From: Flavobacteriales bacterium
GTDB lineage: Bacteria > Bacteroidota > Bacteroidia > Flavobacteriales_F > PHOS-HE28
NCBI GenBank assembly: GCA_020635675.1
Contig: JACJZJ010000005.1
Span: forward strand, 147,633-211,632
Direction of reading: 5' to 3'
Length of the DNA: 64,000 nucleotides
Shown: positions 14,220 through 58,710 of the stretch, piece after piece
How the letters are laid out: each line of letters opens with the position of its first letter
Numbering within the stretch: position 1 is the stretch's first letter
Made by a program: the position numbers and the translations under genes
Notes under the pieces: model-generated
Database searches by the model: none
What the model was told of the DNA's origin: nothing
What the model saw: the letters and a program-made list of their open reading frames with translations, nothing else

Positions 14220-14945
14220 ATGCGAGCGCTCGTCATCAAGGAGGTCCGCGGCTTCATCGGTTCGCTGATCGGCCAGATCGTGATCGTGATCTTCCTGCTC
14301 GTCACCGGCCTCCTGCTGTGGGTGTTCCCGGACAATCTGCTGGACCTTGGCTATGCCGACCTCGCCCCCTTGTTCATGGTGGCGCCCTGGGTCTTCCTCT
14401 TCCTGGTGCCCGCGGTCACCATGCGGAGCTTCAGCGAGGAAAAGCGCACGGGCACGATCGAACTGCTCCTGACGCGGCCCTTGAGCGAATGGAGCATCGT
14501 GCTCGGGAAATACATCGCGGCCGTGGCATTGATCGTTCTCGCGTTGGTTCCCACCTTGATCTACGTCTGGAGCATCGCCGACCTGGCCATACCGCAGGGC
14601 AACATCGACACGGGTGGCACCTGGGGCAGCTACCTGGGATTGTTCTTCCTGGGAAGCTGTTTCGCTGCGGTGGGTCTGTTCGCCTCAGCGCTCACGGAAA
14701 GTCAGATCGTGGCCTTCCTGATCGCGGTGTTCCTGAGCTTCCTGCTCTACCTGGGCTTCGATCAACTGGCCAGCTTCGACCTTCTAGGGGCACTGGAGGG
14801 GCCCATCAAGAACATCGGCATCCAGGCGCACTATACCTCCATCAGCCGCGGCGTCGTGGACCTGCGTGACGTGCTCTACTTCACCGGGTTGATCGCGATC
14901 TTCCTAATGGCCACCCGCCTCGTGCTCCAAAGCCGGAAATGGTAG
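14220..14945 (+). CDS. gldF: gliding motility-associated ABC transporter permease GldF
   Basis: ABC-2 type permease with 6 TM. Immediately followed by gldG. Confidence 0.8.
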   Translation: MRALVIKEVRGFIGSLIGQIVIVIFLLVTGLLLWVFPDNLLDLGYADLAPLFMVAPWVFLFLVPAVTMRSFSEEKRTGTIELLLTRPLSEWSIVLGKYIAAVALIVLALVPTLIYVWSIADLAIPQGNIDTGGTWGSYLGLFFLGSCFAAVGLFASALTESQIVAFLIAVFLSFLLYLGFDQLASFDLLGALEGPIKNIGIQAHYTSISRGVVDLRDVLYFTGLIAIFLMATRLVLQSRKW

Positions 14946-14946
14946 C

Positions 14947-16683
14947 ATGAAGAACGCGATGGGCTTGCGGTTGCGGGACCTCACCGAGCTATTGGCCGGG
15001 ATGGGCATCGTGGTGCTGGTCCTGTTCATCGGCTCATTCACGCATCTGCGTGCCGACCTGACCAGCGAAAAGCGCTTCACCCTCACCCCCGCCACGCATC
15101 AATTGGTGGACAGCCTGAAGGATGTGGTGTTCGTGAAAGTGTTCCTTGAAGGCGACCTGCCCGCCGATCTGCATCGGTTGTCGTTGGCCACACGCGAACT
15201 ATTGGACGAGATGCGCGTGGATGCCCCGGACAAGCTGGAATACGCCTTTGAGGACCCCAGTGATCACCCGGACGAGAAGACACGCAATGAGGTGTTCGCC
15301 GAACTGGAAAAGCAGGGCCTGCAGTACACCAGCATCCGGATCCGGGAGAAGAGCGGTTTCTCCGAGCGGATCGTGTTCCCGGGCGCGCTCATCACGTATC
15401 GCGGCAAGACCATTCCGGTACAACTGCTCAAAACCCAGTTGAGGCAACCGGACGCGGACATGGTGAACCGCTCCATCAACAACCTGGAATACGAGGTTGC
15501 GGGGGCCATCCGCCAGCTCACGCGGATCGAGAAACCCCGCGTGGCCTTCCTGGAAGGACAAGGGGAACTGGCTCCCATGGAAGTGCAGGACATCACCAAG
15601 GCGCTCGGCGAGAACTACGACGTCACACGCGTTCGGATCGATGGACACATCAACTCCCTGAGCGACCACGTGAAAGGGGCGCGCTACCGTTTGAACAAGT
15701 ACGATGCACTGATCGTGGCCAAGCCGGACAGCACGTTCTCGAAAAAGGACCAGTACATCCTGGACCAGTTCATCATGAACGGAGGCAAGGTGCTCTGGCT
15801 CCTGGATATGATGAACGCGCATCTGGACAGTCTGCGGAGCAGGCAGTTCAGCATCGCGACCCCGCTCGACCTCGACCTCGACGAAATGCTCTTCGCCTAT
15901 GGCGTGCGGATCAACAAGGACCTGCTCCTGGACGCCAGTTGCGCGCCGATCGAGATCTACACCACACCATATGGCAACCAAAGGAAACTGGAGCGATTCC
16001 CCTGGTATTTCGAGCCGGTGCTGATCCCGCACAGCGACCATCCCATCGTTACCAATATCGATCCCGTGCATACGGCCTTCGTCAGCAGCATGGACACCAT
16101 CGCCGTGGACAGCATCCGAAAGACCCTCCTGCTGACCACTTCCCCCTACAACCGGGTTCTGAAGAACCCGGTGCGCATCAGCCTTGCCATCGTGGACCTG
16201 GACCTGGGGCTGGACAAGAAGGGCGGTTCACCGGCCCCGGTCGGGGTATTGCTCGAGGGAAGGTTCCATTCCGCGTTCACGGACCGGCTGCCGCCGAAAT
16301 TCCTGGAACAGGAGGAGATCGCCTTTCGCGAACGAGGGCGCCGCACGGCCCAGATCGTGATCAGCGATGGCGATGTGATAGCGAACCGTGTGGATCCCGA
16401 CAAAGGGATGTACTACATGCTGGGATACGACCGGTACGCAGGTCGAAAGATCTATGGCAACCGCGAGCTGATCATCAACGCGATGAATTATCTGCTGGAT
16501 GACAAGAGCCTGATCAGCCTTCGGTCCAGGACGATCACCCTGCGCCAGTTGGATCCCGAGCGGATCGTGGACGAACGCAGCAAGTGGCAGATGATCGCCG
16601 TGGGTGCTCCCGTGCTTCTGACCCTGCTCGCAGGGCTGGCCTTCCAATATATCCGCAGACGTCGTTATTCCCGCACCGCATGA
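14947..16683 (+). CDS. gldG: gliding motility-associated ABC transporter substrate-binding protein GldG
   Basis: 578 aa with N- and C-terminal TM anchors flanking a large periplasmic domain. Conserved pairing with gldF. Confidence 0.8.
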   Translation: MKNAMGLRLRDLTELLAGMGIVVLVLFIGSFTHLRADLTSEKRFTLTPATHQLVDSLKDVVFVKVFLEGDLPADLHRLSLATRELLDEMRVDAPDKLEYAFEDPSDHPDEKTRNEVFAELEKQGLQYTSIRIREKSGFSERIVFPGALITYRGKTIPVQLLKTQLRQPDADMVNRSINNLEYEVAGAIRQLTRIEKPRVAFLEGQGELAPMEVQDITKALGENYDVTRVRIDGHINSLSDHVKGARYRLNKYDALIVAKPDSTFSKKDQYILDQFIMNGGKVLWLLDMMNAHLDSLRSRQFSIATPLDLDLDEMLFAYGVRINKDLLLDASCAPIEIYTTPYGNQRKLERFPWYFEPVLIPHSDHPIVTNIDPVHTAFVSSMDTIAVDSIRKTLLLTTSPYNRVLKNPVRISLAIVDLDLGLDKKGGSPAPVGVLLEGRFHSAFTDRLPPKFLEQEEIAFRERGRRTAQIVISDGDVIANRVDPDKGMYYMLGYDRYAGRKIYGNRELIINAMNYLLDDKSLISLRSRTITLRQLDPERIVDERSKWQMIAVGAPVLLTLLAGLAFQYIRRRRYSRTA

Positions 16684-17696
16684 AGAGGCCCCTGGTCATG
16701 GTCATCGTACTCGCCGTGCTGGGCGCACTGGCGTTGTGGCTGAGCGCCCGTGACCGGGGCACCACGCTCAGCGGGCCGCTAACGGATTTCGCCATTGCGG
16801 ACACCAGCTCCGTGGACCGCATCTTCATCGCGCAGAAGGACGGCCGGAGCGTGGACCTGCGGCGGCAGGACGACGGTACCTGGACGGTGAACGACATCTA
16901 CCGGGCCAACCCGATCCCGGTGCGTCTGTTGCTGAAGACCTTTCTGCGGGTGGAGGTGCGTGCACCGGTGCCGAAGAGCGCGGAAGCGAACGTTCTGCGC
17001 GTGATGGGCGGAGCGGCCCGGAAGGTGGAGATCTACCAAGGCGGTGACACCCCGACCAAGGTCTGGTATGTCGGGCATGCCACCCCCGACCACAACGGCA
17101 CCTACATGGTGCTTGAAAAGCCCGGCAAAGGTCGGTCCGATGTCCCCTTCATCATGGGGATGAGCGGCTTCAGTGGCTTTCTGACCACTCGCTTCCATGC
17201 CAAGCTGGATGAATGGCGGAACAGCGAGGTGTTCGCCTACCCGGACCTGGAACGGATCAGCGTGGTGCTCGTCCAGCACCCGGAGGCCCCCGCCACGGGA
17301 TTCTTCATTTCGCTCGGGGAGGACGGGACACCTCGCCTGATGGACGAGGGTATGCGCCCGGTGCAGGTGGACACCGCCGCGGCGCAGGACTTCCTGCTCC
17401 AATTCAGGTCGTTGCATTTCGAGTACATCGAGCGGAACCTCAGCCGTTCTCAATGCGATTCAGTGCGGAACAGCCCACCGTGGCATGTGGTGACGGTGAC
17501 CGACCGCGACGGGGCCGAGCGCCGTATCCCCTTCTTCCACAAGGAACCCTATCAGGGCCAATTGGATATGGAAGGCGACCGGATGACCCAGGACGTCGAC
17601 CGGATGTACGCCACGGTGGATGACAGCGTCCTGGTGGTCGTGCAACGGCTTTTGTTCGACCGGATCACGCCGTCGATAACCACCCTCGAACGCTAG
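16680..17696 (+). CDS. DUF4340 domain-containing protein
   Basis: ATGA overlap with the gldG stop. Signal/TM MKRPLVMVIVLAVLGALALWL. This family typically follows gldG. Confidence 0.6.
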   Translation: MKRPLVMVIVLAVLGALALWLSARDRGTTLSGPLTDFAIADTSSVDRIFIAQKDGRSVDLRRQDDGTWTVNDIYRANPIPVRLLLKTFLRVEVRAPVPKSAEANVLRVMGGAARKVEIYQGGDTPTKVWYVGHATPDHNGTYMVLEKPGKGRSDVPFIMGMSGFSGFLTTRFHAKLDEWRNSEVFAYPDLERISVVLVQHPEAPATGFFISLGEDGTPRLMDEGMRPVQVDTAAAQDFLLQFRSLHFEYIERNLSRSQCDSVRNSPPWHVVTVTDRDGAERRIPFFHKEPYQGQLDMEGDRMTQDVDRMYATVDDSVLVVVQRLLFDRITPSITTLER

Positions 17697-17763
17697 GGTC
17701 CTGGCTGTGGAAAAAGGCGCTCCGGTGTTGATAAAACACCCCGGACGCGCGGAGTGCCCCGGC

Positions 17764-17771
17764 TATCTTTG
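17764..17771 (+). promoter_or_regulatory. candidate -7 element TATCTTTG upstream of dnaN
   Basis: Exact TAnnTTTG match, 70 nt upstream of the alternative ATG at 17841 and 130 nt upstream of 17901. Confidence 0.25.
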
Positions 17772-17900
17772 CCGCTCCTGTCGGGCGTTTCATCCTCAAC
17801 GGGCAAGTCCGACAGGTCACACCGATCATACGATCACATCATGTCAGAGGTCAGTACTACTCCGGAGACCACCACCAAGTCATCCTCATCCAAAAGCGCG

Positions 17901-19022
17901 ATGAAGTTCATTGTGTCCAGCACCGCTCTGCTCAAGCAGCTCCAAATGCTCCAGGGCGTACTCGCCAGCAGCAACACCCTGCCCATCCTCGACAATTTCC
18001 TGTTCGAGGTGGACGGCAAGCAGCTGACACTGACCGCATCGGACCTGGAGACCACGATGACCAGCACCATGCCCGTGGAAGCGAAGGACAAGGGCAGCGT
18101 GGCGATCCCTGCACGCCTTCTGCTCGACACCTTGAAGGCATTTCCAGAGCAACCCCTCACCTTCACCATCGACGGAAAGCACCATGGGGTGGAGATCAGC
18201 AGCGACCAGGGCAAGTACAAGATGACCGGTTTCAGCGGGTCCGAATTCCCGAAGAGCCCCGTGCTGGAGGACCCCTCGCGTTTCACGCTACCCGCAGGCA
18301 CCCTGGCCACGGCCATCAACAAGAGCATCTTCGCCACAGGCAATGACGACCTGCGCCCGGTGATGAGCGGGATCTTCTTCGAGCTGGCCGATGATGCCGT
18401 GCGCTTCGTGGCCACGGACGCGCACAAGCTGGTCCGCTACATGCGTACCGACGTCAAGGCCGACAGGGCCGCGAGCTTCATCGTCCCGAAGAAGCCCTTG
18501 AACCTGCTGAAGAACATCCTGGCGTCCACCAGTGCAGAGGTCGCCGTGAGCTACAACGAGAACAACGCCTCGTTCGCCTTCGACAACATCATGCTGGTGT
18601 GCCGCCTGATCGACGGGAAATACCCGAACTACGAGGCGGTGATCCCAAAAAAGAACCCCAACAAGCTCACGATCGACCGGGCCACTTTCCTGAGCTCGAT
18701 CCGCCGGGTGAGCATCTTCAGCAACAAGACCACGCACCAGGTGCGCCTGAGCATCACCGGGAGCCAATTGACCATCAGTGCCGAGGACCTCGATTTCGCC
18801 AACGAGGCCAATGAGGTGCTCACCTGCAGCTATGAAGGGGACGACATGACCATCGGCTTCAACTCCAGGTTCCTGATGGACATGCTGAACAATCTGGAGA
18901 GCGAGCACGTGGTGCTGGAAATGAGCGCACCGAACCGTGCCGGTATCCTGCTCCCGGGCGGGTCTGCTGAGGTGGGCGAGGACATCCTCATGCTCGTGAT
19001 GCCCGTGATGCTGAACAATTGA
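17901..19022 (+). CDS. dnaN: DNA polymerase III subunit beta
   Basis: Begins MKFIVSSTALLKQLQMLQGV... and shows a three-domain sliding-clamp pattern. A possible longer N-terminus could start at the ATG at 17841. Confidence 0.9.
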   Translation: MKFIVSSTALLKQLQMLQGVLASSNTLPILDNFLFEVDGKQLTLTASDLETTMTSTMPVEAKDKGSVAIPARLLLDTLKAFPEQPLTFTIDGKHHGVEISSDQGKYKMTGFSGSEFPKSPVLEDPSRFTLPAGTLATAINKSIFATGNDDLRPVMSGIFFELADDAVRFVATDAHKLVRYMRTDVKADRAASFIVPKKPLNLLKNILASTSAEVAVSYNENNASFAFDNIMLVCRLIDGKYPNYEAVIPKKNPNKLTIDRATFLSSIRRVSIFSNKTTHQVRLSITGSQLTISAEDLDFANEANEVLTCSYEGDDMTIGFNSRFLMDMLNNLESEHVVLEMSAPNRAGILLPGGSAEVGEDILMLVMPVMLNN

Positions 19023-20773: not shown

Positions 20774-20834
20774 GCTGGTGCGGATCAAACCCCGGGACCA
20801 GCGTCCCGTCCTACCCACCAGACCTTTCACTTTC

Positions 20835-22367
20835 ATGCGACGCGAGCTGTTCCTATCCCTCCTGGCCCTGCCCTTCCTGGCCACCGCCCAGACCGAGGGC
20901 GACGGCCTGTTCGACACCGACCAGGTGATCACCGTGGAACTGACCTTCAGCCAGCCCGACTTCTGGGACAGCCTGGTGGCCAACTACGCCACGGAGACCT
21001 ACATGTGGGCGGGTGTCACCTTCACCGACAACAGCGGGACCTACGCCTACGACAGCATCGGCGTGCGGTTGAAAGGCAACAGCAGCTACGGTCATCCGGG
21101 CAACAAGAAGTCGATGAAGCTGGACATCAACCGCTATGTGCCCGGGCAGAACTACCACGAAGAGAAGAAGTTGAACCTGAACAACGGCTTCAAGGACCCC
21201 ACCTTTCTGCGGGAAAAGATGTTCATGGACTTCTGCCGGGACCGGGGCGTGCTCGCGCCACGGGTCAACTTCGCCAACGTATACATGAACGGCCAGCTCT
21301 GGGGGTTCTACACCGCGGTGGAGCAGATCGACGACCAGTTCCTCGACCGTTGGATCGCGGATGACGACGGGAACCTGTTCAACGCTGGCGACAACTTCGG
21401 CGGAGGCGGCGGCGGCAACAGCAACGAGGCCGATCTGAAATGGTACGGCAGCGACCAGACACTCTACTACGATCGCTACGAGCTGAAGAACAACGAGGAC
21501 GTGAACGACTGGAGCGACCTCCTGGACCTGATCGACCTGATCGACAGCTCCGCCGACGGCGTGCTGACGACCCAATTGCCCCAACGCTGGGATTGGGAGA
21601 CCCTTTGCCGCTCCTTCGCGCTCGACAACCTGTTCGCCAACCTGGACAGCTACATCAATTCCTCGCGCAACTACTACATCTACCACAACGCCACCACGGA
21701 TCGCTGGCAGTGGATCAAATGGGATGCGAACGAGGCGTTCGGGCAGTACACCGGTGGGCAGCAGAACCTGGAGCAACTCTCCCCCACCTACGCCGCGATC
21801 AACCGTCCGCTGGCGCAACGGATCATGAACATCGTACTGCTACGCTCGGACTATCTCGTGCAATACTGCGACGTCCTGGACCATTTCACGAACGCCGAGC
21901 TCGATCCGAAGATCGACGCGTTGAAGAGCCTGATCCAGGCCAGCGTGTATGCCGACCCGAACAAAATGTACACCAACGCGTTGTTCGATCAGAACATCGA
22001 ACAGGACGTGACCCTCGGCGGCGGAATGGGCGGCGGACCGTGTTACGGGCTCAAGTCGTTCATCACCGCGCGCGGTCAATACCTGGCGGGTGCGATCGAC
22101 TGTACGCTGTACACGGGCGTTGCTGGCGATGAGGTCCTGGATGCGGAATTCAATGTGTTCCCGAACCCGACGAACGGTACGGTGCTGATCAATGGACCGA
22201 CCCTCAGTGCGGCTGCCACGATCCAGGTGATCGACGCCACCGGCCGGCGGTTGCTCGACCGCGCGTTCGATCCGGTGCTCGATCTGTCGGGTCTTGCACC
22301 AGGGACCTATCTACTTCGGGTCATGAACGGCGAGGACGTCCGCCAGCAGCGGATCGTCAAGCAGTGA
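20835..22367 (+). CDS. CotH kinase family protein with T9SS type A C-terminal sorting domain
   Basis: Signal peptide MRRELFLSLLALPFLATAQT. The central region is CotH-like. The C-terminus NVFPNPTNGTVLI...LRVMNGEDVRQQRIVKQ is a typical Por secretion tail. Confidence 0.75.
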   Translation: MRRELFLSLLALPFLATAQTEGDGLFDTDQVITVELTFSQPDFWDSLVANYATETYMWAGVTFTDNSGTYAYDSIGVRLKGNSSYGHPGNKKSMKLDINRYVPGQNYHEEKKLNLNNGFKDPTFLREKMFMDFCRDRGVLAPRVNFANVYMNGQLWGFYTAVEQIDDQFLDRWIADDDGNLFNAGDNFGGGGGGNSNEADLKWYGSDQTLYYDRYELKNNEDVNDWSDLLDLIDLIDSSADGVLTTQLPQRWDWETLCRSFALDNLFANLDSYINSSRNYYIYHNATTDRWQWIKWDANEAFGQYTGGQQNLEQLSPTYAAINRPLAQRIMNIVLLRSDYLVQYCDVLDHFTNAELDPKIDALKSLIQASVYADPNKMYTNALFDQNIEQDVTLGGGMGGGPCYGLKSFITARGQYLAGAIDCTLYTGVAGDEVLDAEFNVFPNPTNGTVLINGPTLSAAATIQVIDATGRRLLDRAFDPVLDLSGLAPGTYLLRVMNGEDVRQQRIVKQ

Positions 22368-29685: not shown

Positions 29686-30094
29686 GGTGGCAAGGTAGCT
29701 GCGTTCCGTGAGGAGTGGCTTGCATGGCGATGCGGATGGGACCTACCTTTAGGGAGACCGATCAGCCGCTCCTTCCCGCATGTACTTGGTCCCCGCTCCC
29801 ACCGTTCACCCTCAGTTCGTCACTGGACCGAATTCGCTTCAGCCGAGTTCCTGCAAGCACGCGGCACAGGGGATGCACATGCGCGCAATCCCTTGTCAGG
29901 AGCGGGTTGCAGCGTACAATGGTGCATGTGACCTGCAAGTAAAATTTTCTTTGCCATCAAGTTCGACCCTTCTTTTTTTTTTCACTTTCTTCGATCCATA
30001 TTTGTCGCCCGATTCTTTAGGAACCCTTGACCAGCAACGGTTCCAGAACGATCGGACCGAACCACCACCGCAACCATAACACGTGACACCGCCC

Positions 30095-31525
30095 ATGAAG
30101 AGAGACCACGAGAAGGCCTGGGAACGGTGCCTCGCAGTGATCAAGGACAACGTCAGTCCGCAGAGCTTCAAGACCTGGTTCGAACCGATCAAGGCCTTGC
30201 GACTCCAGGACAACGTTCTCACGATCCAGGTACCGAGCCAGTTCTTCTATGAGTGGCTTGAAGAGCACTACATCGGGCTGTTGAAGAAGATCATCAAAAA
30301 GGAATTGGGGAGCGAAGGGCGTCTGGAGTATTCCATCATCATGGAGAACGGCTATCAGAGCGCCCACCCATACACCGTCAAGGTGCCCACCAGCAATGCG
30401 CGTGAGGTGAAGAATCCCGCCGTGCAGCTGCCGATCGATATCGCCAACAGCCCGATCAAGAATCCCTTCATCATTCCCGGCCTTCGCAAGATCAAGGTCG
30501 AGAGCCACCTCAACCAACATTACTCCTTCGAGAATTTCATCGAAGGGGACTGCAATCGACTGGCCCGCAGTGCGGGCTTCGCCGTCGCTCAGAAGCCCGG
30601 CGGGACGGCCTTCAATCCACTGTTGATCTATGGCGGTGTGGGCCTCGGAAAAACGCATCTGGCCCACGCCATCGGCATCGAGATCAAGCGGCACCATGCC
30701 GACCGGACGGTATTGTACGTACCTGCCGAGAAGTTCACCCAGCAGTTCATCGAAGCGGTGAAGAACAACACGGTAGGCGACTTCAGCCAGTTCTACCAGA
30801 TGATGGACGTCCTGATCATCGACGACGTCCAGTTCCTGGCGGGCAAAGAGAAGACGCAGGATGTGTTCTTCCACATCTTCAATCACCTTCATCAAAGCGG
30901 CAAGCAACTGGTGATCACCAGTGACAAGGCTCCGGTGGAGATGCAGGGCATGGAACAGCGCCTGCTCTCGCGGTTCAAATGGGGTTTGAGCGCCGACCTA
31001 CAGACCCCCGGACTGGAGACACGGATCGCCATCCTGCAGAAGAAGATGTATGCGGAAGGGATCGACCTGCCCAAGGAGGTGGTCGAATACCTCGCCTACA
31101 GCATCACCACCAACATCCGTGAACTGGAAGGGGCGATGATCAGCCTGATCGCCCAGAGCTCGCTGAACAAGAAGGCGGTGACCCTGGACCTGGCCAAGCA
31201 GATGATCGACAAGTTCGTGAAGAACACCGCGCGGGAGGTGTCGATCGATTACATCCAGAAAGTGGTGTGCGACTACTTCGACCTGCCGATCGAACTGCTC
31301 AAGAGCAAGACACGGAAGCGCGAAGTGGTGCAGGCCAGACAGATCGCGATGTACTTCGCCAAGAAGATGACCAAGAGTTCGCTGGCCAGCATCGGCGCCC
31401 ATTGCGGAGGCAAGGACCACGCCACCGTGCTGCACGCCTGCCGCACTGTGAACAATCTCCAGGAGACCGACAAACAGTTCCGCGGCTACCTGGAGGACCT
31501 GGAGAAGAAACTGAGCATCCATTAG
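30095..31525 (+). CDS. dnaA: chromosomal replication initiator protein DnaA
   Basis: AAA+ Walker A GGVGLGKTHL, the DnaA signature, and a C-terminal DNA-binding HTH (VVQARQIAMYFAKKMT). The track start at 30083 is a GTG; the ATG is at 30095. Confidence 0.93.
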   Translation: MKRDHEKAWERCLAVIKDNVSPQSFKTWFEPIKALRLQDNVLTIQVPSQFFYEWLEEHYIGLLKKIIKKELGSEGRLEYSIIMENGYQSAHPYTVKVPTSNAREVKNPAVQLPIDIANSPIKNPFIIPGLRKIKVESHLNQHYSFENFIEGDCNRLARSAGFAVAQKPGGTAFNPLLIYGGVGLGKTHLAHAIGIEIKRHHADRTVLYVPAEKFTQQFIEAVKNNTVGDFSQFYQMMDVLIIDDVQFLAGKEKTQDVFFHIFNHLHQSGKQLVITSDKAPVEMQGMEQRLLSRFKWGLSADLQTPGLETRIAILQKKMYAEGIDLPKEVVEYLAYSITTNIRELEGAMISLIAQSSLNKKAVTLDLAKQMIDKFVKNTAREVSIDYIQKVVCDYFDLPIELLKSKTRKREVVQARQIAMYFAKKMTKSSLASIGAHCGGKDHATVLHACRTVNNLQETDKQFRGYLEDLEKKLSIH

Positions 31526-34267: not shown

Positions 34268-35164
34268 TCAGTTCCCGACCTGTGGCGAGTGTTCGAGGTC
34301 CAACAGCTCGATCTCGTAGACGACGGTGGTGAAGGGCGGAACGATACCCAAGGCCGATCCCTTGTGACCAAAGGCCAGTGCTGAGGGCACGATGAGCGTG
34401 CCGCGCCCGCCCTTTCCGAGGGCATAGAGTCCCATTTCCAGGCCGCGGATCACCTGGTCGGGATCACCCAATCTGAAGTGCAGAGGACCATCGGGGCCAT
34501 GGTTGTCGTCGAACACACGTCCATCGAGGAAGCGTCCCACGTAGGCCACCGTGACCGCATCCCCTGACCGCGCATGGGGGCCGACGCCACTGTCCGCGAC
34601 CTGCACGTACATGCCGCTCCCCCAATAGGAGATCGTGTCGATCTCGTGTTCACCGAGGTAGGCGAGCAGTACCCGCCGTTCATCCGCCTCTTGGTCCGCC
34701 TTCCAACCTTGAAAGCGGCTCTCCTCCGCCCGCACTTGCGCCGGATCCCGGATCGAACGTACCCGAATATGGACATCGATCAGGAGCGTGTCGGACACCG
34801 GTCGCAGATGGGTAAGATCCAGTCCACTCCAGGGAAGATCACGGCACAGGCCCAGGATGCTCGCACTGTCCCCCATGTGCAGCTGCGCGACCGCATTTCC
34901 AAGGCCAGTGCCGGCGATATCGCTCAGGACCAACCCACGATCACCGCTGAACACCGACCCCGCGCCACCATTCACCGGTCCGATCCGGAGCGCCAGCGTT
35001 ATCCTGTCGCTGTCCGAGGGAACACGCTCACCGTCACCCAGTGCGAGCAGACGCAGGTAGGTCCCCTTGCCGAGGTCCCTGTATCCGGGATGTGGATCGG
35101 ACGTGCAGGAGCCGAGGAGCAGGAGCATGATCGCCCATGCAGGAAGGGTGCGCGAATGTCTCAC
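34268..35164 (-). CDS. FKBP-type peptidyl-prolyl cis-trans isomerase lipoprotein
   Basis: Lipobox LLLLGSC. C-terminal FKBP domain (VTVAYVGRFLDGRVFDDN...GLEMGLYALGKGGRGTLIVPSALAFG). Confidence 0.8.
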   Translation of the reverse strand: MRHSRTLPAWAIMLLLLGSCTSDPHPGYRDLGKGTYLRLLALGDGERVPSDSDRITLALRIGPVNGGAGSVFSGDRGLVLSDIAGTGLGNAVAQLHMGDSASILGLCRDLPWSGLDLTHLRPVSDTLLIDVHIRVRSIRDPAQVRAEESRFQGWKADQEADERRVLLAYLGEHEIDTISYWGSGMYVQVADSGVGPHARSGDAVTVAYVGRFLDGRVFDDNHGPDGPLHFRLGDPDQVIRGLEMGLYALGKGGRGTLIVPSALAFGHKGSALGIVPPFTTVVYEIELLDLEHSPQVGN

Positions 35165-50654: not shown

Positions 50655-51521
50655 TCAACGCAGTGCGATGTAGGTGGTACCCAGTCGACGGTCCCCTTTG
50701 ACCACTTCGATCTTGTAGAGTCCGGGCTTCAGTTTCTCCTTCGGATCGTAGACCAACTTCACGCGGTCGTTGCCCGTCGGTGCGGCCTCTCCACCAGCCA
50801 GTAGCGGACCTGGTTCGGCAAAGGTGATGACGCTCACCGCAGGGTCATCTCCATTGATGGTCCGCCCGGCGGGATCGGTGATCCGATAATCCACCTGTCC
50901 GGCCAGGCCGGGCGGCAGCATCATGGTGAGTTGGACCTTCCTGGTCCTTCGGGCCACCACGGTCATCCGTTCCTTCCGGCCCTGGAACGCCTGCAAAAGG
51001 CTCTGGTCGATGGTGGCCTGGTCGGCGGCGAGTTGGTCGATCTGCTGCTTCAGGGCAAGGTTGCGCGCTTCCAATGCGAGCTTCTCCCCGTTCATACGGT
51101 CCAGACCGGAACGTGCCTCCATGAGCTGCTGTTCCAGGACGGCCTTGGCCTGTTGCAGACCTTCCGCATCCTTCTTCCAGCGACCAGCCTCTGCTGCGGC
51201 CCCCTGGAGCCGGTCGATTCGCATGCGCAACCCGGCGACCTCATCCTGTGCGCGGTGGCGTTCGGCTTCCAGTTCAGCCGCGTGCTCTTCCTGTCGGGAG
51301 AGTTCCGTTCTCGCCAGGACCAGGTCCTGCTGCGCGTCCCGTTGTTCGCGCACCATGCGCACATTCTCATTGCGCTGCAGGTCGAGGTCATCGGCCAGGT
51401 CGTGGTTCATGCCCTGTTGATGGAGGTTCCAGCCCAGGGAAAGCGCCAGTAGGATGATCGCGGCGCCGGCGATGAGCTTGGACCTATCGGTCCGGAGGGC
51501 TCGAAGCATGTGATGTTCCAT
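50655..51521 (-). CDS. membrane-anchored coiled-coil protein with C-terminal beta-rich domain
   Basis: Starts at the internal ATG MEHHMLRALR. Has a TM anchor, about 170 aa of Q/E/A/L/R heptad-like sequence, and a 100-aa C-terminal domain. The upstream part of track ORF 50655..52250 is antisense to the adhesin gene. Confidence 0.55.
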   Translation of the reverse strand: MEHHMLRALRTDRSKLIAGAAIILLALSLGWNLHQQGMNHDLADDLDLQRNENVRMVREQRDAQQDLVLARTELSRQEEHAAELEAERHRAQDEVAGLRMRIDRLQGAAAEAGRWKKDAEGLQQAKAVLEQQLMEARSGLDRMNGEKLALEARNLALKQQIDQLAADQATIDQSLLQAFQGRKERMTVVARRTRKVQLTMMLPPGLAGQVDYRITDPAGRTINGDDPAVSVITFAEPGPLLAGGEAAPTGNDRVKLVYDPKEKLKPGLYKIEVVKGDRRLGTTYIALR

Positions 51522-51764
51522 GGCGGTTACAACGGCGGAACGCATAGGTGGATGCGGGAAACCGATGAAGCTTCGGTGAAAGTTCGATGAGACGACGATG
51601 GATCCGGTCGGTGATCGGCCGTGCGGACCAGGTGTGGCCAGGGCACGCCGGCCCGTGTGCGCACGGCGTATTGTCCCGTTCCGTCGACGAATAGTCCAGG
51701 TCCGTCTAATAGCCGGAACCCGTGCGCGGGAGGGGGCGTAGCACCGAGCGAAGACCCCTACACC

Positions 51765-54700
51765 GTGCCCTTCCCCCCGTTCGCCAAAGCACCCCGCTCT
51801 TCCTTCCGACCGCGAACACTGTTCGCCCTGCTTGCGACGCTCAACGTTCTCCTGATCCCCTTTACCGCCCGTGGCACGCACATGTCGGGAGGAGAGATCT
51901 ATTGGAACTGCCTGGGGAACGACCAGTACGAGATCACCCTGGTCGTGTACCGCGACTGCGCCGGGATCGCACTGGACCCTGCCTATGACCTCGACATCAG
52001 CAGTCCCTGTGGCAACATGACCCTGCACGTGACCACACCCGGAGGCGTGGAACTCTCGCAGTTGTGCGACCAGGAGCTTCCCAACAGCACGTGCAACGGA
52101 GGTACACTTCCGGGGATCCAGCAATACATCTACACGGGCACCATCACCCTCCCTCCGTGTGACTCCTGGACCATTTCCTGGACGGAGATCTACCGGAACA
52201 ATGCCATCGTGAACCTGCAGAACCCGGGGCAGCAGGAGATGTACATCCAAGCCACGCTGAACAACACGGTCGCGGCCTGTGATGACTCACCGCAGTTCTC
52301 CAACATCGCGATCCCGTACGTCTGCACCGGCTACCCCGTGAGCTATAGCTACGGTGCCTTCGATCCGGAGGGCGATTCCCTCTCTTACCAGTTGATCAGC
52401 GCATGCGTGGGTGGTGCCACCCCGATCCCGTACGTGACGCCATATTCCCCCACACAACCCATCCCGGGCATCACCCTCGATCCGGTGACCGGTCTTGTGA
52501 CCTTCACGCTCAACACCGCCGGGAACTGGGTGGTGGTGGTGCAGGTGAACGTGTACGACGACCAGGGGAACCTGATCGGCACGGTGATGCGCGACATGCA
52601 ATTCATCGCATACCCGTGCTCCAACCAGCCTCCCGACCCTACAACGGGCACCGTGGCCAACATGCAGGGGGCCGCGACACAGACCGGTCCCTACGCCGTG
52701 GAGGTCTGCGAATCGGGCGACTTCTGCTTCGACATGGTGATCAGCGACCCGAACTCGGCGAACATCCTGAGCGCGACCACCAATGTGCAGCAGAACCTGC
52801 CAGGAGCCACGTTCAGCTATTCGGGAAGCAATCCGATCACCTGCACGGTCTGCTGGACGGCGCAACCCGGATCGTCCGGCTTCTTTCCCTTCATCGTCAC
52901 GGTGAGCGACGGGGCATGCCCGATACAGGCCTTCCAGACCTATGTGTACCAGGTGCACGTGCGTGAGGGGCTCTTCATCGATGCCACCGCCGTGGACGAG
53001 AGTTGCCTCGGGGCTGGCGATGGAAGTGCCAGTGTGAACGTGTTGGCGGGCACACCACCGTACCAGATCACCTGGAGCACGGGAGCCACGGGCACGAGCA
53101 TCACGGCCGGTTCGGGGACCTACACGGTGACGATGGTGGATGCGAACGCCTGCGGACCGACAACGGACACCGTCACCATCGGCGCCGCCTCCCTGCCCGG
53201 CGTCGCCAACGCGGGTCCCGATCTGGTGGGATGTCCGAACGGCCTGCCGATCGACCTGCAAGGCAGCGTATCGAACGCCACCAGCGGTCAGTGGTCGGGA
53301 GGGCTGGGGACGTTCCTCGGGAACGGTCCGAACGTGCAATACATGCCCACTCCGAGCGAGATGGCGTCCGGCGGTATCGACCTGGTGCTCACCACCACGG
53401 GCAATGGAAGCTGCTCCCCGGACGCGGATACGGTCCATGTCACCCTTTCCAATGCGCTGATGAACGCTGCAGTAAGCGCAACGGACGCACTGTGCACGGC
53501 AACAGCCTCGGGCAGCGCCAGCTTCATGCCGAACACACCCACGCTCAACTACCTGTGGAGCGACCCGAACGGGCAGACCACCGCCACGGCCAGCAATCTC
53601 ATGCCGGGCAATTACTCCGTGCAGGTCACCGACGGGCTTGGTTGCGATACCATCATGGCGGTGACGATCAACGCGCCCGCACCTCTTGCGATCGCGCAGG
53701 TGGAGGTGGTGGATGAACCCTGCGCCGGTGCGGGTGGTGGCAGCGTGAGCGTGACCGCCACGGGCGGCACCCCGCCGTACCAATTCACCTGGAGCAACGG
53801 GATGACCGGAGCTGCCATCACGGTGGGTGCAGGGACCTATACCGTATCGGTCACCGACGCGAACGGCTGCGCACCCGCGACCGCAACGGCCACCGTGAAC
53901 GCCACGAGCCAGCCGCCCACGGCCAACGCAGGTCCGGACCTGATCGGTTGCATGGATGCATTGCCTGTTGCGCTTCAAGGCATTGTGACCAATGCGGCGA
54001 GCGGCATCTGGTCGGGCGGAACGGGCTCCTTCACGGGCACCGGGCTGAACGTGCAATACATGCCTTCCAATGCCGAGATCGCCGCAGGGCAGGTCGTCTT
54101 GACCCTGACCACCACCGGTACCACCGGATGCCCAGCGGCAAGCGACCAGGTGATCGTGCAACTGCCCAACAGTTTCCAGAACGCCCAGGTCCAGTCCACC
54201 CCGGCCGCGTGCGCGGCCTCGGCCAATGGCACGGCCACATTCACCCCACAAGGTGCCGGATTCAGCTACAACTGGAACGATCCCGCCGGTCAAACGACCC
54301 CGACCGCGATCGGGCTCCCGGCGGGGAACTACAATGTGCAGGTCACGGATGTCTTCGGATGCGGAACCCTGCTTTCCGTGACCATCGCGGAACCTCCGGC
54401 ATTGCAATTGAGCGGTCCCACGGGAACGAACCCCACTTGCGCCGGTTCGACCAACGGCGCGGCCACGGTCGGAGCTACGGGCGGCACGCCGGGCTATACC
54501 TACCAATGGAGCGCCAATACGGGCGGACAAACGCTTCCGACCGCGACCGCTCTCGGTGCCGGCACCTACGTGGTGGTCGTCACCGATGCGAACGGATGCA
54601 TGGCGCAGGGTTCCACGGCCCTTGCGGCACCTCCCCCTGTCACACTTTCCGCTCAGGTGCCCGCCACGGTCTGTGTGAACGCCCCGGTGCAATTGACGGC

Positions 54701-55907
54701 ACAAGCTGGCGGTGGCCAGGGTGGGTATGTCATCCACTGGGCCAACATCGGCTATGGAAGCCCGATCACCTACTCCTTCCCTTCCACCCAGACCGTGAGC
54801 GTGAGCGTGACCGATGCTGCCGGATGTACCGGTCCCACGCTCACGTTCCCGGTGGACGTGCTCGACCTATCGCTCGCCACGCTCCAGACCTATGGGGACA
54901 CCGTGGTCTGCCCGGGCGGTTCCGCGGAGATCGGCGGTCAGGTGACCAACTATGCGGGCACGGTCCAGCTGTATTGGCCCGGCCTGGGCGTGAACGGCAA
55001 TGGCCCGTTCACGCTGCCCGTGACAGGCGACCAGTCCTATGCGGTGATCGCGACGGACGGCTGTGGCAACACGTTGAACGGCGAGGTGCTGGTGGAACTT
55101 GACACACCTCCCGACGTGGTACTCCCACCCGTGATCGCCGAGGGATGCGCACCGTTGGACGTGGACTTCCCCAACAACATCGTGACCGGTACGTTGAGCT
55201 ATCTCTGGCACTTCGGTGACGGCCAGACATCCACCGCACCCGCACCGTCGCATACGTATCCTGCCGGTACGTTCCCGGTCACCTTGACGGTGACCACACC
55301 GAACGGCTGTTCCTCCACCAGCGCCCAGCCCGGGCTCGTCCTGGCCTACGCCCCGCCGACCGCTGAATTCGACGCCGATCCGTGGACCACGGACTCCGAT
55401 GCCCCGACGATCACGTTCACCAACGCCTCATCGGGCAGCATCGTGAACAACAGCTGGTCCTTCGGGGATGGCGGTACGAGCAATGACATCGACCCGAGCC
55501 ACACGTATCAGAACGCGGGGACGTTCACTGTGCAGCTTGTGGTGGAGGACACCCATGGCTGCACCTCGTCCGCAATGCATGCGGTGACCATCTCACCGGT
55601 ATATGACGTGGTGATCCCCACGGGCTTCACGCCGGACCCCAATGGTGGGAACGGCGGCACCTACGGCGCGAACGACCTATCCAACAACGTCTTCTATCCG
55701 TTCGTGGACGATGTGAAGGACTTCGACCTCCGGATCTACAACCGCTGGGGCGAGCTCGTGTTCGAATCGAAGGATGTGCACATCGGCTGGGACGGCTACT
55801 ACCGAGGCCAGCTCAGTCCGCAGGACGTATACATGGTTCAGCTCTGGGTGAAGTTCGTGGACGACCGCGAACTGACCCGGTACAGCGACCTCACCCTTTT
55901 CCGATAG
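51765..55907 (+). CDS. SprB-like gliding motility adhesin: cadherin-like N-terminus, five SprB repeats, two PKD domains, type B gliding-associated C-terminal domain
   Basis: Signal peptide RPRTLFALLATLNVLLIPFTARG. A DxxDxD cadherin-like motif FDPEGDSLSY. Repeats of GGTPPYxFxWSNGxTGxxITxGAGTYTVxVTDANGC (SprB repeat). PKD motifs WHFGDGQTS and WSFGDGGTS. The C-terminal YNRWGELVFESKD...SDLTLFR is a type B CTD. No in-frame ATG precedes the signal peptide; the start is probably GTG at 51765 (track start 51621 is also a GTG). Confidence 0.85.
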   Translation: MPFPPFAKAPRSSFRPRTLFALLATLNVLLIPFTARGTHMSGGEIYWNCLGNDQYEITLVVYRDCAGIALDPAYDLDISSPCGNMTLHVTTPGGVELSQLCDQELPNSTCNGGTLPGIQQYIYTGTITLPPCDSWTISWTEIYRNNAIVNLQNPGQQEMYIQATLNNTVAACDDSPQFSNIAIPYVCTGYPVSYSYGAFDPEGDSLSYQLISACVGGATPIPYVTPYSPTQPIPGITLDPVTGLVTFTLNTAGNWVVVVQVNVYDDQGNLIGTVMRDMQFIAYPCSNQPPDPTTGTVANMQGAATQTGPYAVEVCESGDFCFDMVISDPNSANILSATTNVQQNLPGATFSYSGSNPITCTVCWTAQPGSSGFFPFIVTVSDGACPIQAFQTYVYQVHVREGLFIDATAVDESCLGAGDGSASVNVLAGTPPYQITWSTGATGTSITAGSGTYTVTMVDANACGPTTDTVTIGAASLPGVANAGPDLVGCPNGLPIDLQGSVSNATSGQWSGGLGTFLGNGPNVQYMPTPSEMASGGIDLVLTTTGNGSCSPDADTVHVTLSNALMNAAVSATDALCTATASGSASFMPNTPTLNYLWSDPNGQTTATASNLMPGNYSVQVTDGLGCDTIMAVTINAPAPLAIAQVEVVDEPCAGAGGGSVSVTATGGTPPYQFTWSNGMTGAAITVGAGTYTVSVTDANGCAPATATATVNATSQPPTANAGPDLIGCMDALPVALQGIVTNAASGIWSGGTGSFTGTGLNVQYMPSNAEIAAGQVVLTLTTTGTTGCPAASDQVIVQLPNSFQNAQVQSTPAACAASANGTATFTPQGAGFSYNWNDPAGQTTPTAIGLPAGNYNVQVTDVFGCGTLLSVTIAEPPALQLSGPTGTNPTCAGSTNGAATVGATGGTPGYTYQWSANTGGQTLPTATALGAGTYVVVVTDANGCMAQGSTALAAPPPVTLSAQVPATVCVNAPVQLTAQAGGGQGGYVIHWANIGYGSPITYSFPSTQTVSVSVTDAAGCTGPTLTFPVDVLDLSLATLQTYGDTVVCPGGSAEIGGQVTNYAGTVQLYWPGLGVNGNGPFTLPVTGDQSYAVIATDGCGNTLNGEVLVELDTPPDVVLPPVIAEGCAPLDVDFPNNIVTGTLSYLWHFGDGQTSTAPAPSHTYPAGTFPVTLTVTTPNGCSSTSAQPGLVLAYAPPTAEFDADPWTTDSDAPTITFTNASSGSIVNNSWSFGDGGTSNDIDPSHTYQNAGTFTVQLVVEDTHGCTSSAMHAVTISPVYDVVIPTGFTPDPNGGNGGTYGANDLSNNVFYPFVDDVKDFDLRIYNRWGELVFESKDVHIGWDGYYRGQLSPQDVYMVQLWVKFVDDRELTRYSDLTLFR
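52985..54640 (+). repeat. intragenic tandem supra-repeat region: two ~705-nt units (52985-53700, 53701-54405) plus a partial third, each unit carrying two SprB repeats
   Basis: The translated units align with each other along their length (ANAGPDLxGC...NVQYMP...LTTTG...C modules). Confidence 0.6.
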
Positions 55908-55911
55908 GCGC

Positions 55912-56913
55912 ATGGGAACACGGCGACCCCTCCTCTTCCTGCTTCTCGCTGCGCCCTGGTCCGGAGCCTTGGCCCAGGACCCCCAGTTCACGCAGAACTT
56001 CGCTGCGCCGCTGTATCTGAACCCGGCGTTGACCGGCAACACCTACCAGGACCGGCTCATCCTGAACTATCGCAAACAATGGCCGGGCATCGCTCCGGGC
56101 TATGATACGTATGCGGTGAGCTACGACCACCGCGCGAGCACGCTGAACAGCGGTTTCGGGGTGATGGCGATGCGCGACGTGGCGGGCAGCAACAGTCTGG
56201 CGTTCACCATGCTCGCAGCGAACTACAGCTACGAGGCGCACATCGACCGGAAGCACGGGATCCGCGGCGGGCTGCGGTTCGCATACACGCGACGGGAGTT
56301 CGATCCATCGAACGTGCTGTTCGCCGACCAGGTGATCCGGGACAATGCGCCCACCTCCATCGAGCCACCGATGATCGAACGCGTACAGTATTTCGATGCC
56401 GCGGTGGGTCTGGTCTACTTCGGCGAGCGCGCCTGGGTGGGTACCTCCTTCAACCACATCAACCGCCCCCAACAAACGCTGCTGAACGGAGGCAACACCC
56501 GGCTGGCGATACGGAGCAGCGTGCATGGCGGCTACCGGTTCCCGCTCGATGGACTGACGATGCGGAAGAGCCGGACGATCCTGACCGCGGCCGCGCATTA
56601 CAAGGCCCAGGACAAATGGGACCAGTTCGACGTGGGTGCGTACATCGAGCACAGGCAGCTCACGGGAGGCATCTGGTACCGCGGCCTGCCGGCCTTGAAA
56701 GCCTACAAACGTGGCTATGCGAACAACGATGCCGTGGCGGTGATGATCGGGTACGAGACCGTCAACCAGTTCACTTTCGTTTACAGCTACGACGTCACGG
56801 TGAGCACGCTGACCATGGCCAGCGCGGGAGCGCACGAGATCAGCATCACCTATGAGTGGCCGGTACGCAAGAAGGCCCGCCGGTATCGCGTGGTCCCTTG
56901 TCCGAAGTTCTGA
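55912..56913 (+). CDS. type IX secretion system membrane protein PorP/SprF family
   Basis: Signal peptide then DPQFTQNFAAPLYLNPALTGN, the hallmark PorP/SprF N-terminus. 4 nt downstream of the type-B-CTD adhesin. Confidence 0.85.
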   Translation: MGTRRPLLFLLLAAPWSGALAQDPQFTQNFAAPLYLNPALTGNTYQDRLILNYRKQWPGIAPGYDTYAVSYDHRASTLNSGFGVMAMRDVAGSNSLAFTMLAANYSYEAHIDRKHGIRGGLRFAYTRREFDPSNVLFADQVIRDNAPTSIEPPMIERVQYFDAAVGLVYFGERAWVGTSFNHINRPQQTLLNGGNTRLAIRSSVHGGYRFPLDGLTMRKSRTILTAAAHYKAQDKWDQFDVGAYIEHRQLTGGIWYRGLPALKAYKRGYANNDAVAVMIGYETVNQFTFVYSYDVTVSTLTMASAGAHEISITYEWPVRKKARRYRVVPCPKF

Positions 56914-58710
56914 TCACATCCGGTCCGGCACCGCGATCCCCAGGCACCACATCACCTTCCGGGTGGTGTTGGCTACGGCTTCACTGATCCTCAAGCGCCG
57001 ATCGCGCCTGGCCGGATCCTCCTCCTTCAATACCGGAACGCTCTGGTAGAAGCTGTTGTACGCCTTCACCACCTCATAGGCGTGATTGGCCAGCCTGCTC
57101 GGATCATAGTGACGGGCGGCATCGTCCAGCACGGCGGGGGAACGGTGGAGCAGCTTGATGATCTCGCGCTCCTCGGGTAGAAGAGGCAAAGTTCCATCCT
57201 TCGAATGGGACCACGCCCCCCTTCCCTCCGCCTTGTTCAACAAGGAGCGGATCCGGGCGTGCGTGTATTGGATGAACGGACCCGTGTGGCCCTGCAGGTC
57301 GATACTGGCCACGGGGTCGAACAGCATCCGCTTCTTTGGATCGACCTTGAGCAGGAAGTATTTCAACGCGGCCAGACCGATCATCTCGAAGAGCGTCGCC
57401 TTCTCCTCCGCCGCGAAATCGTCCAGTTTTCCGAGCTGTTCCCCCGTGGCGCGCGCCTCCCGCACCATTTCCTCCATCAGGTCGTCGGCGTCCACCACCG
57501 TGCCTTCACGGCTCTTCATCCTTCCGCTGGGCAGGTCCACCATGCCATAGCTCAAGTGGTACAGGCCATCCGCCCAGGGAAAACCCATCTTCTTCAGGAT
57601 GGCGAACAGCGTCTTGAAGTGGTAGTCCTGTTCGTTGCCCACCACGTAGATCATGCGCGACAGGCCGGGATGGTCCTTGAACCGTTGGATCGCGGTACCG
57701 ATGTCCTGTGTCATGTACACGCTGGTTCCGTCGCGGCGCAGGAGCACCTTCTCGTCCAGGCCTTCCGCGGTATTGTCGACCCACACGCTGCCGTCCTCCT
57801 TGCGGTAGAACGTTCCCTTGTCGAGGCCTTCGAGCACATCCTGCTTGCCCAGCACATAGGTCTCGCTCTCATAGTAGAGCTTGTCGAACTCCACGCCCAT
57901 GCGGGTGTACGTGGCGCTGAACCCATCGTACACCCAACCGTTCATCTTCTCCCAAAGCGCGCGCACTTCGAGGTCACCTTCCTCCCATTTTCGAAGCATT
58001 TCCTGGGCCTCCAGCAGGATCGGCGCCTCCTTCTCCGCAGCATCCTGGGCGCGGCCTTTTGCCATGAGTTCCTCCACCTCCCGCTTGTAGGCCTGGTCGA
58101 ACTGCACGTAGTACTTCCCCACCAGCTTGTCACCCTTCAACCCACTGCTCTCCGGTGTTTCCCCGCTGCCGAATTTCCGCCAGGCGAGCATGCTCTTGCA
58201 GATGTGGATGCCGCGGTCGTTGATCACCTGGACCCGGACCACCTTGTTGCCCGCGGCCTGGAGGATCCGACCCACGCTATGGCCGAGAAAATTGTTCCGC
58301 AGATGCCCCAGGTGCAGCGGTTTGTTGGTGTTCGGCGAGGAGTATTCCACCATCACCTCCCGGCCGGTCGCTGGAAAGGCAAGGATGTCGTGCTCGAGCG
58401 CTTCACCGAGGAAGCCGTTCCAATAGGCATCGGCGATCACCAGGTTCAGGAAGCCCTTCACCACGTTGAAGCGCTCGACGATATCCACGTGCGCCTGCAG
58501 GTGGGCACCAACGGCCTCGGCGGTCCGCTCGGGTCCCTGACCGCTGAGCTTCAGGAAGGGAAAGACATTGATCGTGACGTCACCCTCGAACTCCGGACGT
58601 GTCGGCTGGAGGACGATCTGTTCAACCACCGGCACCTCCGACCCGAACAACGAACCGAACGCTTCAACGATGGCCGGAACGAGCCGGGCCTGCAGCCTGT
58701 CCTGATGCAT
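56914..58710 (-). CDS. argS: arginine--tRNA ligase
   Basis: HIGH-type motif PNTNKPLHLGHLRN. Class I aaRS. Anticodon-binding DALR domain at the C-terminus. Confidence 0.93.
   Translation of the reverse strand: MHQDRLQARLVPAIVEAFGSLFGSEVPVVEQIVLQPTRPEFEGDVTINVFPFLKLSGQGPERTAEAVGAHLQAHVDIVERFNVVKGFLNLVIADAYWNGFLGEALEHDILAFPATGREVMVEYSSPNTNKPLHLGHLRNNFLGHSVGRILQAAGNKVVRVQVINDRGIHICKSMLAWRKFGSGETPESSGLKGDKLVGKYYVQFDQAYKREVEELMAKGRAQDAAEKEAPILLEAQEMLRKWEEGDLEVRALWEKMNGWVYDGFSATYTRMGVEFDKLYYESETYVLGKQDVLEGLDKGTFYRKEDGSVWVDNTAEGLDEKVLLRRDGTSVYMTQDIGTAIQRFKDHPGLSRMIYVVGNEQDYHFKTLFAILKKMGFPWADGLYHLSYGMVDLPSGRMKSREGTVVDADDLMEEMVREARATGEQLGKLDDFAAEEKATLFEMIGLAALKYFLLKVDPKKRMLFDPVASIDLQGHTGPFIQYTHARIRSLLNKAEGRGAWSHSKDGTLPLLPEEREIIKLLHRSPAVLDDAARHYDPSRLANHAYEVVKAYNSFYQSVPVLKEEDPARRDRRLRISEAVANTTRKVMWCLGIAVPDRM

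Follow-up and report, generated by a model that had tools for sequence, protein, structure and literature searches.

The locus described here raises the question of how a long secreted protein of an environmental bacterium is held at the cell surface, and whether it moves there. It lies in a stretch of 64,000 nucleotides (the window; G+C ~62%) from an uncultured sewage-sludge Flavobacteriales bacterium and consists of two genes on the forward strand, one encoding a putative repeat-containing adhesin and the other, directly downstream, encoding an outer-membrane protein of the PorP/SprF family. We conclude with good confidence that the adhesin is a type IX secretion system (T9SS) cargo which carries a type-B C-terminal sorting domain (CTD) and is displayed by the downstream protein as its dedicated carrier. 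The locus itself provides four direct observations, which are the domain content of the two proteins, the adjacency of their genes, the conservation of the pair and the conservation of a cysteine in the tail of the carrier. The arrangement of a cargo with a dedicated carrier has already been described and is well supported (Gorasia 2022, PMC9143113; Paillat 2025, PMC12618676).

The adhesin gene is part of a long open reading frame (ORF) at 51621-55907 (+) with four possible in-frame starts. The GTG at 51765 was taken as the start codon because it is the only in-frame start that yields a signal peptide and fits the family alignment. From this start the gene (51765..55907, +) encodes a T9SS type-B cargo of 1380 amino acids plus stop, as identified by the ORF and start analysis, an independent gene call and Pfam and NCBIfam matches. 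The independent public gene call (GCA_020437955.1, JAGQVO010000059.1) gives the same products of 1380 and then 333 amino acids. A preliminary description of the locus had reported a secreted protein of 1381 amino acids; the length is corrected to 1380, and the term 'giant' adhesin used there is an overstatement for a protein of this size. The adhesin ends with DLTLFR and the stop codon TAG at 55905-55907, and a gap of 4 nucleotides (GCGC) separates this stop from the ATG of the carrier gene at 55912, exactly as had been noted earlier. The carrier gene (55912..56913, +; 333 amino acids plus stop) ends with VPCPKF and the stop codon TGA at 56911-56913. The next gene is the convergent argS, the stop codon of which (56914-56916, -) directly adjoins the TGA of the carrier gene. 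As the two stop codons are immediately adjacent, there is no space for an intergenic terminator between the carrier gene and argS. The adhesin gene is not preceded by a gene on the same strand, its upstream neighbour (50655-51509, -) being divergent.

The type-B C-terminal sorting domain comprises residues ~1286-1380 of the adhesin, up to the end DLTLFR (55620..55904, +), and was identified by matches to CHU_C and TIGR04131, by PF13585 in its homologs and by alignment motifs. CHU_C (PF13585) matches residues 1307-1358 with 31.7 bits, above the gathering score of 27. PF13585 was also found in 72 of the 74 homologs of the last 105 amino acids, many of which are named gliding-motility-associated C-terminal domain proteins. 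In the alignment of these last 105 residues, PxxF(T/S)P, IFNRWGELVFES, GWDG, GQLSPQDVY and a terminal TLxR are kept in the family, with the variants (I/V)(F/Y)NRWGE(L/M)(V/I)F and, at the very C-terminus, TL(F/L/I)R. Conserved motifs within the ~100 C-terminal residues of type-B cargo have been named A-E (Paillat 2025, PMC12618676). The family has an insertion of ~10 residues, NGxxGGxYxxxDLSND, in the first motif loop, where distant members show the canonical NGDGLND.

The assignment of the carrier is based on nearly full-length profile matches to PF11751 (187.2 bits, cutoff 22.3) and TIGR03519 (220.3 bits, cutoff 90.55). The protein has a signal peptide ending in SGALA before QDPQF. Its AlphaFold2 model (pLDDT 84.3) has 14 strands, the last at residues 307-316, which agrees with the topology given for PorP, a 14-stranded barrel (PMC9143113). 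In a Foldseek search with the model, the highest TM-scores (0.61 and 0.59) were obtained for two T9SS translocon entries, 8gl6 and 6h3i, in each case with chain F, and FadL-type barrels were matched as well. We take chain F of these entries to be PorV, the type-A carrier. A search of the carrier sequence against solved structures returned no relatives and no PorP-family structure. Following the last predicted strand is a basic tail, residues 317-333 (56860..56910, +), which is unstructured in the model, presumably faces the periplasm and ends with VVPCPKF. Its sequence (...RRYRVVPCPKF) contains a single cysteine, Cys330, encoded by the TGT codon at 56899-56901. Both the Pfam and the TIGR match stop at about residue 315, short of the tail.

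Conservation of the pair was analyzed in a scan of one genome per species, using search patterns derived from an alignment of 14 sequences. The scan identified 320 stretches encoding relatives of the N-terminal head of the adhesin, and the best 80 of these loci were analyzed. All of the 80 are from metagenome-assembled genomes (MAGs) of Flavobacteriales or Bacteroidota, with 58-87% identity, and many originate from activated sludge or wastewater, judged from the record titles. Pairs were counted in the 63 loci where the adhesin gene is complete at its 3' end and its type-B CTD could be detected. In 63/63 of these loci a PorP-family ORF lies on the same strand as the adhesin gene and starts between -4 and +95 nucleotides from the adhesin stop; in 59/63 the start lies within -4 to +9 nucleotides and in 34/63 the two genes overlap by 4 nucleotides. 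The other loci are truncated contigs or split ORFs, and several of the split cases have the PorP gene further downstream. The argS gene is located downstream on the opposite strand in 45/66 loci. The adjacency of adhesin and PorP genes in all 63 loci, together with the downstream argS, indicates that the adhesin-carrier pair is a stable, vertically inherited chromosomal unit. That such a cargo is encoded directly upstream of its cognate PorP/SprF-family protein, as stated in the preliminary description, is supported, and published experiments show this arrangement to be required for anchoring at the surface and for export by the T9SS (PMC9143113, PMC12618676). The end of the carrier is equally conserved, with [VI]PCPKF in 61/62 complete orthologs, preceded by a variable basic linker.

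The adhesin starts with a Sec signal peptide (residues 1-36; 51765..51872, +), which was read from the sequence and judged by inspection. It consists of a basic n-region, the hydrophobic LFALLATLNVLLIPF with a 15-residue hydrophobic core RTLFALLATLNVLLIPF, and A-R-G before TH, thus A-x-G at positions -3/-1. AlphaFold2 predicts a helix at residues 16-34 of this region. In relatives the consensus at the cleavage site is AxA-TH, and the mature N-terminus THxSGGEIYW is conserved.

The stalk of the adhesin is built from repeated domains. The repeats were defined by Smith-Waterman local alignment and by hidden Markov models (HMMs) built and iterated within the protein; a BLASTP self-comparison gave no off-diagonal matches. 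Five canonical SprB repeats were identified in this way, whereas with the Pfam SprB model (82.3 bits) three stretches pass individually. The stalk contains a tandem super-repeat of ~240 amino acids with the order SprB repeat, immunoglobulin (Ig)-like unit, SprB repeat, which occurs twice and is followed by the fifth SprB repeat. SprB repeat 1 spans residues 414-467 (53004..53165, +; in-protein HMM 71 bits, Pfam SprB at 408-442) and is followed by the first Ig-like unit, named 'ANAGPD', at residues 477-568 (53193..53468, +) and by SprB repeat 2 at residues 577-631 (53493..53657, +; in-protein HMM 78 bits). The second copy consists of SprB repeat 3 at residues 653-706 (53721..53882, +; in-protein HMM, with the best Pfam SprB stretch at 647-681), the second 'ANAGPD' unit at residues 717-807 (53913..54185, +) and SprB repeat 4 at residues 816-868 (54210..54368, +). 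SprB repeat 5 follows at residues 892-948 (54438..54608, +), the last two repeats being recognized by the in-protein HMM. The 'ANAGPD' units were found as internal repeats and have no family model. Residues ~960-1100 (54642..55064, +) form an Ig- or PKD-like region without a family, matched only at 977-1025 by the in-protein HMM after it had drifted. Two PKD domains complete the stalk: Pfam PKD_4 matches two stretches (96.5 bits) and the PKD model likewise two. PKD domain 1, with approximate boundaries at residues ~1105-1190 (55077..55334, +), is also covered by matches to PKD domains in the PDB at 1087-1188, and PKD domain 2 at residues 1196-1275 (55350..55589, +) is the best PKD_4 stretch and matches ColH PKD domains. 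The clear matches of the adhesin sequence to solved structures are PKD domains, the weakest match being a decoration protein (E 0.006, residues 879-954). Both the five SprB repeats and the two PKD domains of the preliminary description were therefore recovered.

Adhesin orthologs fall into length classes of ~1160, 1380, 1620, 1850 and 2100 amino acids, which mostly track one to five 'ANAGPD' units; the adhesin of the window belongs to the two-unit class. A few ORFs are off this pattern, for example one of 2173 amino acids with two units. Since the length classes match the copies of the ~240-residue super-repeat, the length of the stalk differs between species by whole units. In four loci (L012, L046, L056, L076) the adhesin ORF is split in two frames within the repeats, with the PorP gene still downstream; the splits probably stem from frameshifts or misassembled repeats, not from real pseudogenes.

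The N-terminal head (51873..52973, +) is cysteine-rich and is predicted to consist of three beta-sandwich domains at residues ~40-165, ~180-283 and ~297-400, according to its AlphaFold2 model (pLDDT 88.9, pTM 0.81, built with the sequences of 54 relatives). Residues 1-403 match no Pfam family even at E<=10, and a Pfam search with residues 1-452 at the same threshold returned nothing beyond SprB repeat 1 and a match to dCache attributed to chance. A sequence search with residues 1-452 found 131 relatives, the best 75% identical, and the named ones are all from uncultured Flavobacteriales or Bacteroidota. Twelve invariant cysteines are common to the head in close relatives. Foldseek searches of the head model against the PDB placed EC pairs of cadherin-23 and protocadherin-15 at the top (E 2e-6), with TM-scores of only 0.16-0.36. 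The N-terminal region had previously been called cadherin-like. As a sequence assignment this was rejected, because no cadherin family in Pfam matches residues 1-452 at E<=10; the label is defensible only for the modelled fold, in the sense of a generic adhesin-type beta-sandwich. A few of the top structural matches are enzyme chains (for example 6dlh, 6dms and 8p4l), presumably matched through Ig-like accessory domains of those enzymes. The head is modular: its homologs are found on proteins (P0019, P0036, P0046 and others) whose C-terminus carries a type-A CTD (PF18962) in some cases and a type-B CTD (PF13585) in others, or that have no recognised CTD. Two of these are shorter paralogs: P0019 combines the homologous head with a type-A CTD and has no PorP nearby, and P0036 combines it with a type-B CTD and is an orphan without an adjacent PorP gene.

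Published work on T9SS cargo suggests how the two proteins may act together. To be anchored at the surface, type-B cargo binds to PorP-like proteins, as in PG1035-PorP-PorE and SprB-SprF (PMC9143113), the cognate PorP/SprF shuttle is required for secretion of the cargo and the CTD-shuttle pair sets its destination (PMC12618676), and type-B substrates stay attached to the carrier dedicated to them (PMC12635249). From homology with these systems we infer the secretion route, the carrier binding, the adhesive function and any track coupling of the pair. Both proteins would pass the inner membrane via Sec. The carrier would fold in the outer membrane as a 14-stranded FadL/PorV-like barrel, and the ~95-residue type-B CTD would direct the adhesin to the SprA translocon. 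The cognate carrier would pull the adhesin out of the translocon, and the CTD, remaining uncleaved, would keep the adhesin bound to the carrier. The stalk, with its SprB repeats, Ig-like units and PKD domains, and the cysteine-rich three-domain head would then project from the cell. A last step is more tentative and has about an even chance of being correct: Cys330 of the carrier may form a disulfide with a conserved cysteine of GldK, and the complex would be dragged along the gliding track.

Gene architecture alone cannot decide on mobility, because type-B cargo includes mobile and static classes. In Flavobacterium johnsoniae, helical movement is shown by SprB, by Fjoh_4750 and by a fraction of Fjoh_1123, whereas Fjoh_3952 is static and its operon includes a PorE-like gene (PMC12618676); the same split was proposed by Gorasia et al. 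(PMC9143113). In this species a PorE partner accompanies the static type-B cargo and is missing from the mobile one (PMC12618676, PMC9143113). Neither the pair in the window, which is directly followed by argS, nor the orthologous loci have a linked PorE-like gene. Some of the orthologous loci have genes inserted after the carrier gene; these lie on the minus strand and encode TonB-dependent-receptor-like or unrelated proteins, as judged by eye from the sequences only. The lack of a linked PorE, with argS adjoining the carrier gene, favours the mobile class. The tail of the carrier is relevant here as well. A disulfide between Cys326 of SprF and Cys343 of GldK ties SprF to the track and Cys324 raises the efficiency of bonding, the Cys-x-Cys motif being invariant in close SprF homologs (PMC12635249). 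The SprF variant C324A still bonds GldK, and the single-cysteine PorG of Porphyromonas gingivalis bonds PorK (PMC12635249), so that a single tail cysteine can suffice. The carrier is not SprF in the strict sense, but its periplasmic tail holds a conserved cysteine at a suitable position, and Cys330 could bond GldK as Cys326 of SprF does. Taken together, we consider it about equally probable that the adhesin rides the gliding track and that it does not.

Several results weigh against the proposed function of the pair or against its mobility. TIGR04131 scores 27.2 bits on the adhesin (E 3e-6), below the cutoff of 35, and covers profile positions 23-69 only; the type-B CTD claimed earlier is supported by CHU_C and falls short with this second model, probably owing to the ~10 residues inserted in the first motif loop. 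The relatives are, without exception, uncultured MAGs. The family of the carrier was sampled by the 150 nearest representatives (33-61% identity) of 6903 matches, and a Cys-x-Cys tail was found in 0/150 of these and not in the carrier of the window. A single cysteine within the last 12 residues is present in 122/150, mostly as PCPxF. Being so common, the single-cysteine tail may be a general feature of the PorP family and not a marker of mobility. The carriers P0230 and P0223, which have no such cysteine, have no PorE-like gene nearby either, and there is no correlation between cysteine and PorE in this sample, which at n=2 is too small. One of these two is an orphan carrier. A minority of the representatives has the cysteine of the tail motif replaced (LPTPEF, LPSPEF, VPLPKF, IPNPKF). 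The frequency of the motif also allows a bolder suggestion, which we regard as rather doubtful: the PCPxF tail may be a general handle that hooks most PorP-family carriers covalently to the GldK/PorK track, in which case the adhesin would be a track-driven gliding adhesin. If true, disulfide-based propulsion would span much of the repertoire of type-B cargo, and the length-variable protein with one to five ~240-residue super-repeats would be the gliding adhesin of an uncultured high-GC activated-sludge lineage of Flavobacteriales.

The adhesin could also be a static surface protein, secreted and anchored in the same way by a carrier that is uncoupled from the track, and serving cell-cell or surface attachment, for example in sludge flocs or biofilms, instead of gliding. 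This explanation deserves serious weight, although we place it somewhat below an even chance. Some type-B cargo is indeed not mobile (Paillat 2025, PMC12618676), SprF's twin-cysteine motif is missing from the carrier, and the relatives are mostly MAGs from activated sludge or wastewater according to the record titles. However, the operon is without the PorE-like peptidoglycan anchor, a feature that goes with static complexes in both F. johnsoniae and P. gingivalis (PMC12618676, PMC9143113), and in a carrier that is purely static the conserved cysteine of the periplasmic tail would have no evident function. The preliminary description had presented the pair as a SprB/SprF-like mobile gliding adhesin, and this claim is partly supported: the absence of a linked PorE and the conserved tail cysteine favour coupling to the track, whereas the size of the adhesin, the lack of a preceding gene on its strand, the lack of Cys-x-Cys and the existence of static type-B cargo limit it.

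More specifically, the two genes could be the true orthologs of sprB and sprF and thus encode the organism's main gliding adhesin together with its carrier. We consider this very unlikely. The SprB repeats, the type-B CTD, the PorP/SprF gene downstream and the presence of gldF and gldG in the window would fit such an identity, but SprB measures ~6500 amino acids, compared with 1380 here, and is encoded in the sprC-sprD-sprB-sprF operon of F. johnsoniae. The adhesin gene has no same-strand gene before it, its upstream neighbour being a divergent gene for a coiled-coil protein, and the head family is restricted to uncultured Flavobacteriales and Bacteroidota. Because of the size, the missing preceding gene and the absence of twin cysteines, the locus is not the sprC-sprD-sprB-sprF locus. 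It is even conceivable that the cargo is not an adhesin, and that it is a released binding protein or an enzyme with the head as catalytic domain, given that residues 37-403 are without a family assignment. This we regard as extremely unlikely, as the head is modelled as three Ig/cadherin-like sandwiches with no enzyme-like fold, and as characterised type-B cargo stays bound to its carrier (PMC9143113, PMC12635249). We retain the interpretation of the pair as a type-B adhesin with its dedicated carrier.

The surroundings of the pair contain further genes related to gliding and secretion. The gldF and gldG genes mentioned in the preliminary description were confirmed, as both pass the equivalog cutoffs: gldF (14163-14945) scores 324 bits with TIGR03518 (cutoff 288.5) and gldG (14947-16683) 564 bits with TIGR03521 (cutoff 390). 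They form the first part of a stretch at 14163-17696 (+), in which they are followed by an overlapping ORF of 370 amino acids with a faint match to DUF4340. There is no adjacent gene for an ABC ATPase (gldA), and the upstream gene encodes a TPR protein. The product encoded at 20778-22367 (+) belongs to the CotH kinase family (PF08757, 199 bits) and has a T9SS sorting domain of type A (TIGR04183, 44.6 bits), which indicates that the organism uses the T9SS. The GldI-like FKBPs reported earlier could not be substantiated: among the ORFs scanned, which are part of those in the window, a single FKBP was found (34268-35164, -), matching generic FKBP models only, with scores under the cutoffs, and at E<=0.001 none of the models matched is named GldI. 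An outer-membrane barrel with a match to DUF6089, encoded at 4707-5720 (+), was considered as PorG and rejected, as it scores 57 bits with the NCBIfam PorG model (cutoff 130) and its C-terminal tail lacks cysteine, which makes a GldK-bonding PorG unlikely. The divergent gene upstream of the adhesin gene (50655-51509, -) encodes a protein of ~284 amino acids that combines a hydrophobic segment at the N-terminus with a long coiled coil and for which no Pfam or NCBIfam family was matched, and the gene was not detected in the orthologous loci at E<=1e-10. The dnaN (17754-19022, +) and dnaA (30083-31525, +) genes are ~11 kb apart with dnaN upstream, which is not the usual dnaA-dnaN order, and the cumulative GC skew of the window has no clear turning point.

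The unit represents a lineage-specific adhesin family within an established cargo-carrier arrangement, and the pair as such will not surprise a T9SS specialist. It is a clear example of the rule that type-B cargo comes with a dedicated carrier, found in at least 63 species of an uncultured wastewater lineage of Flavobacteriales, and it is useful for annotation, as both the head (residues 37-403) and the 'ANAGPD' Ig-like unit are without family models. It also lends itself to testing two results of 2025, namely that a tail disulfide ties carriers to the moving track and that type-B cargo is split into mobile and static classes. A carrier without a PorE partner and with one invariant tail cysteine raises the question of whether a single cysteine suffices to couple it to the track, and whether mobility can be predicted from PCPxF. 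Of the leads from this locus, the PCPxF tail with its single cysteine, possibly a general handle that couples carriers to the track, is the most useful.

Compared with known systems, the pair resembles SprB and SprF in its SprB repeats, its type-B CTD, the carrier gene directly downstream and the cysteine in the periplasmic tail of the carrier. Unlike SprB, the adhesin has only about one fifth of that length, and unlike SprF, with Cys324-x-Cys326, the carrier has a single cysteine (PCPKF) and is not among the close SprF homologs. With PG1035-PorP-PorE of P. gingivalis and Fjoh_3952/3951/3950 it shares the placement of a type-B cargo on the surface via a 14-stranded PorP-family barrel. Those systems are static and have a PorE-like peptidoglycan-binding partner encoded alongside, whereas the pair of the window and the orthologous loci are without one. 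The carrier has the FadL-like 14-strand barrel fold of PorV, but PorV serves type-A CTDs in general and is recycled as a shuttle, while PorP-family carriers are cargo-specific and retain their cargo (PMC12618676). The closest analogues are the pairs of type-B cargo and shuttle of F. johnsoniae without PorE, such as that of Fjoh_4750, which belongs to the helically mobile class (PMC12618676). From these the adhesin of the window differs by its lineage-restricted head and by the insertion of ~10 residues in the first motif loop of the CTD.

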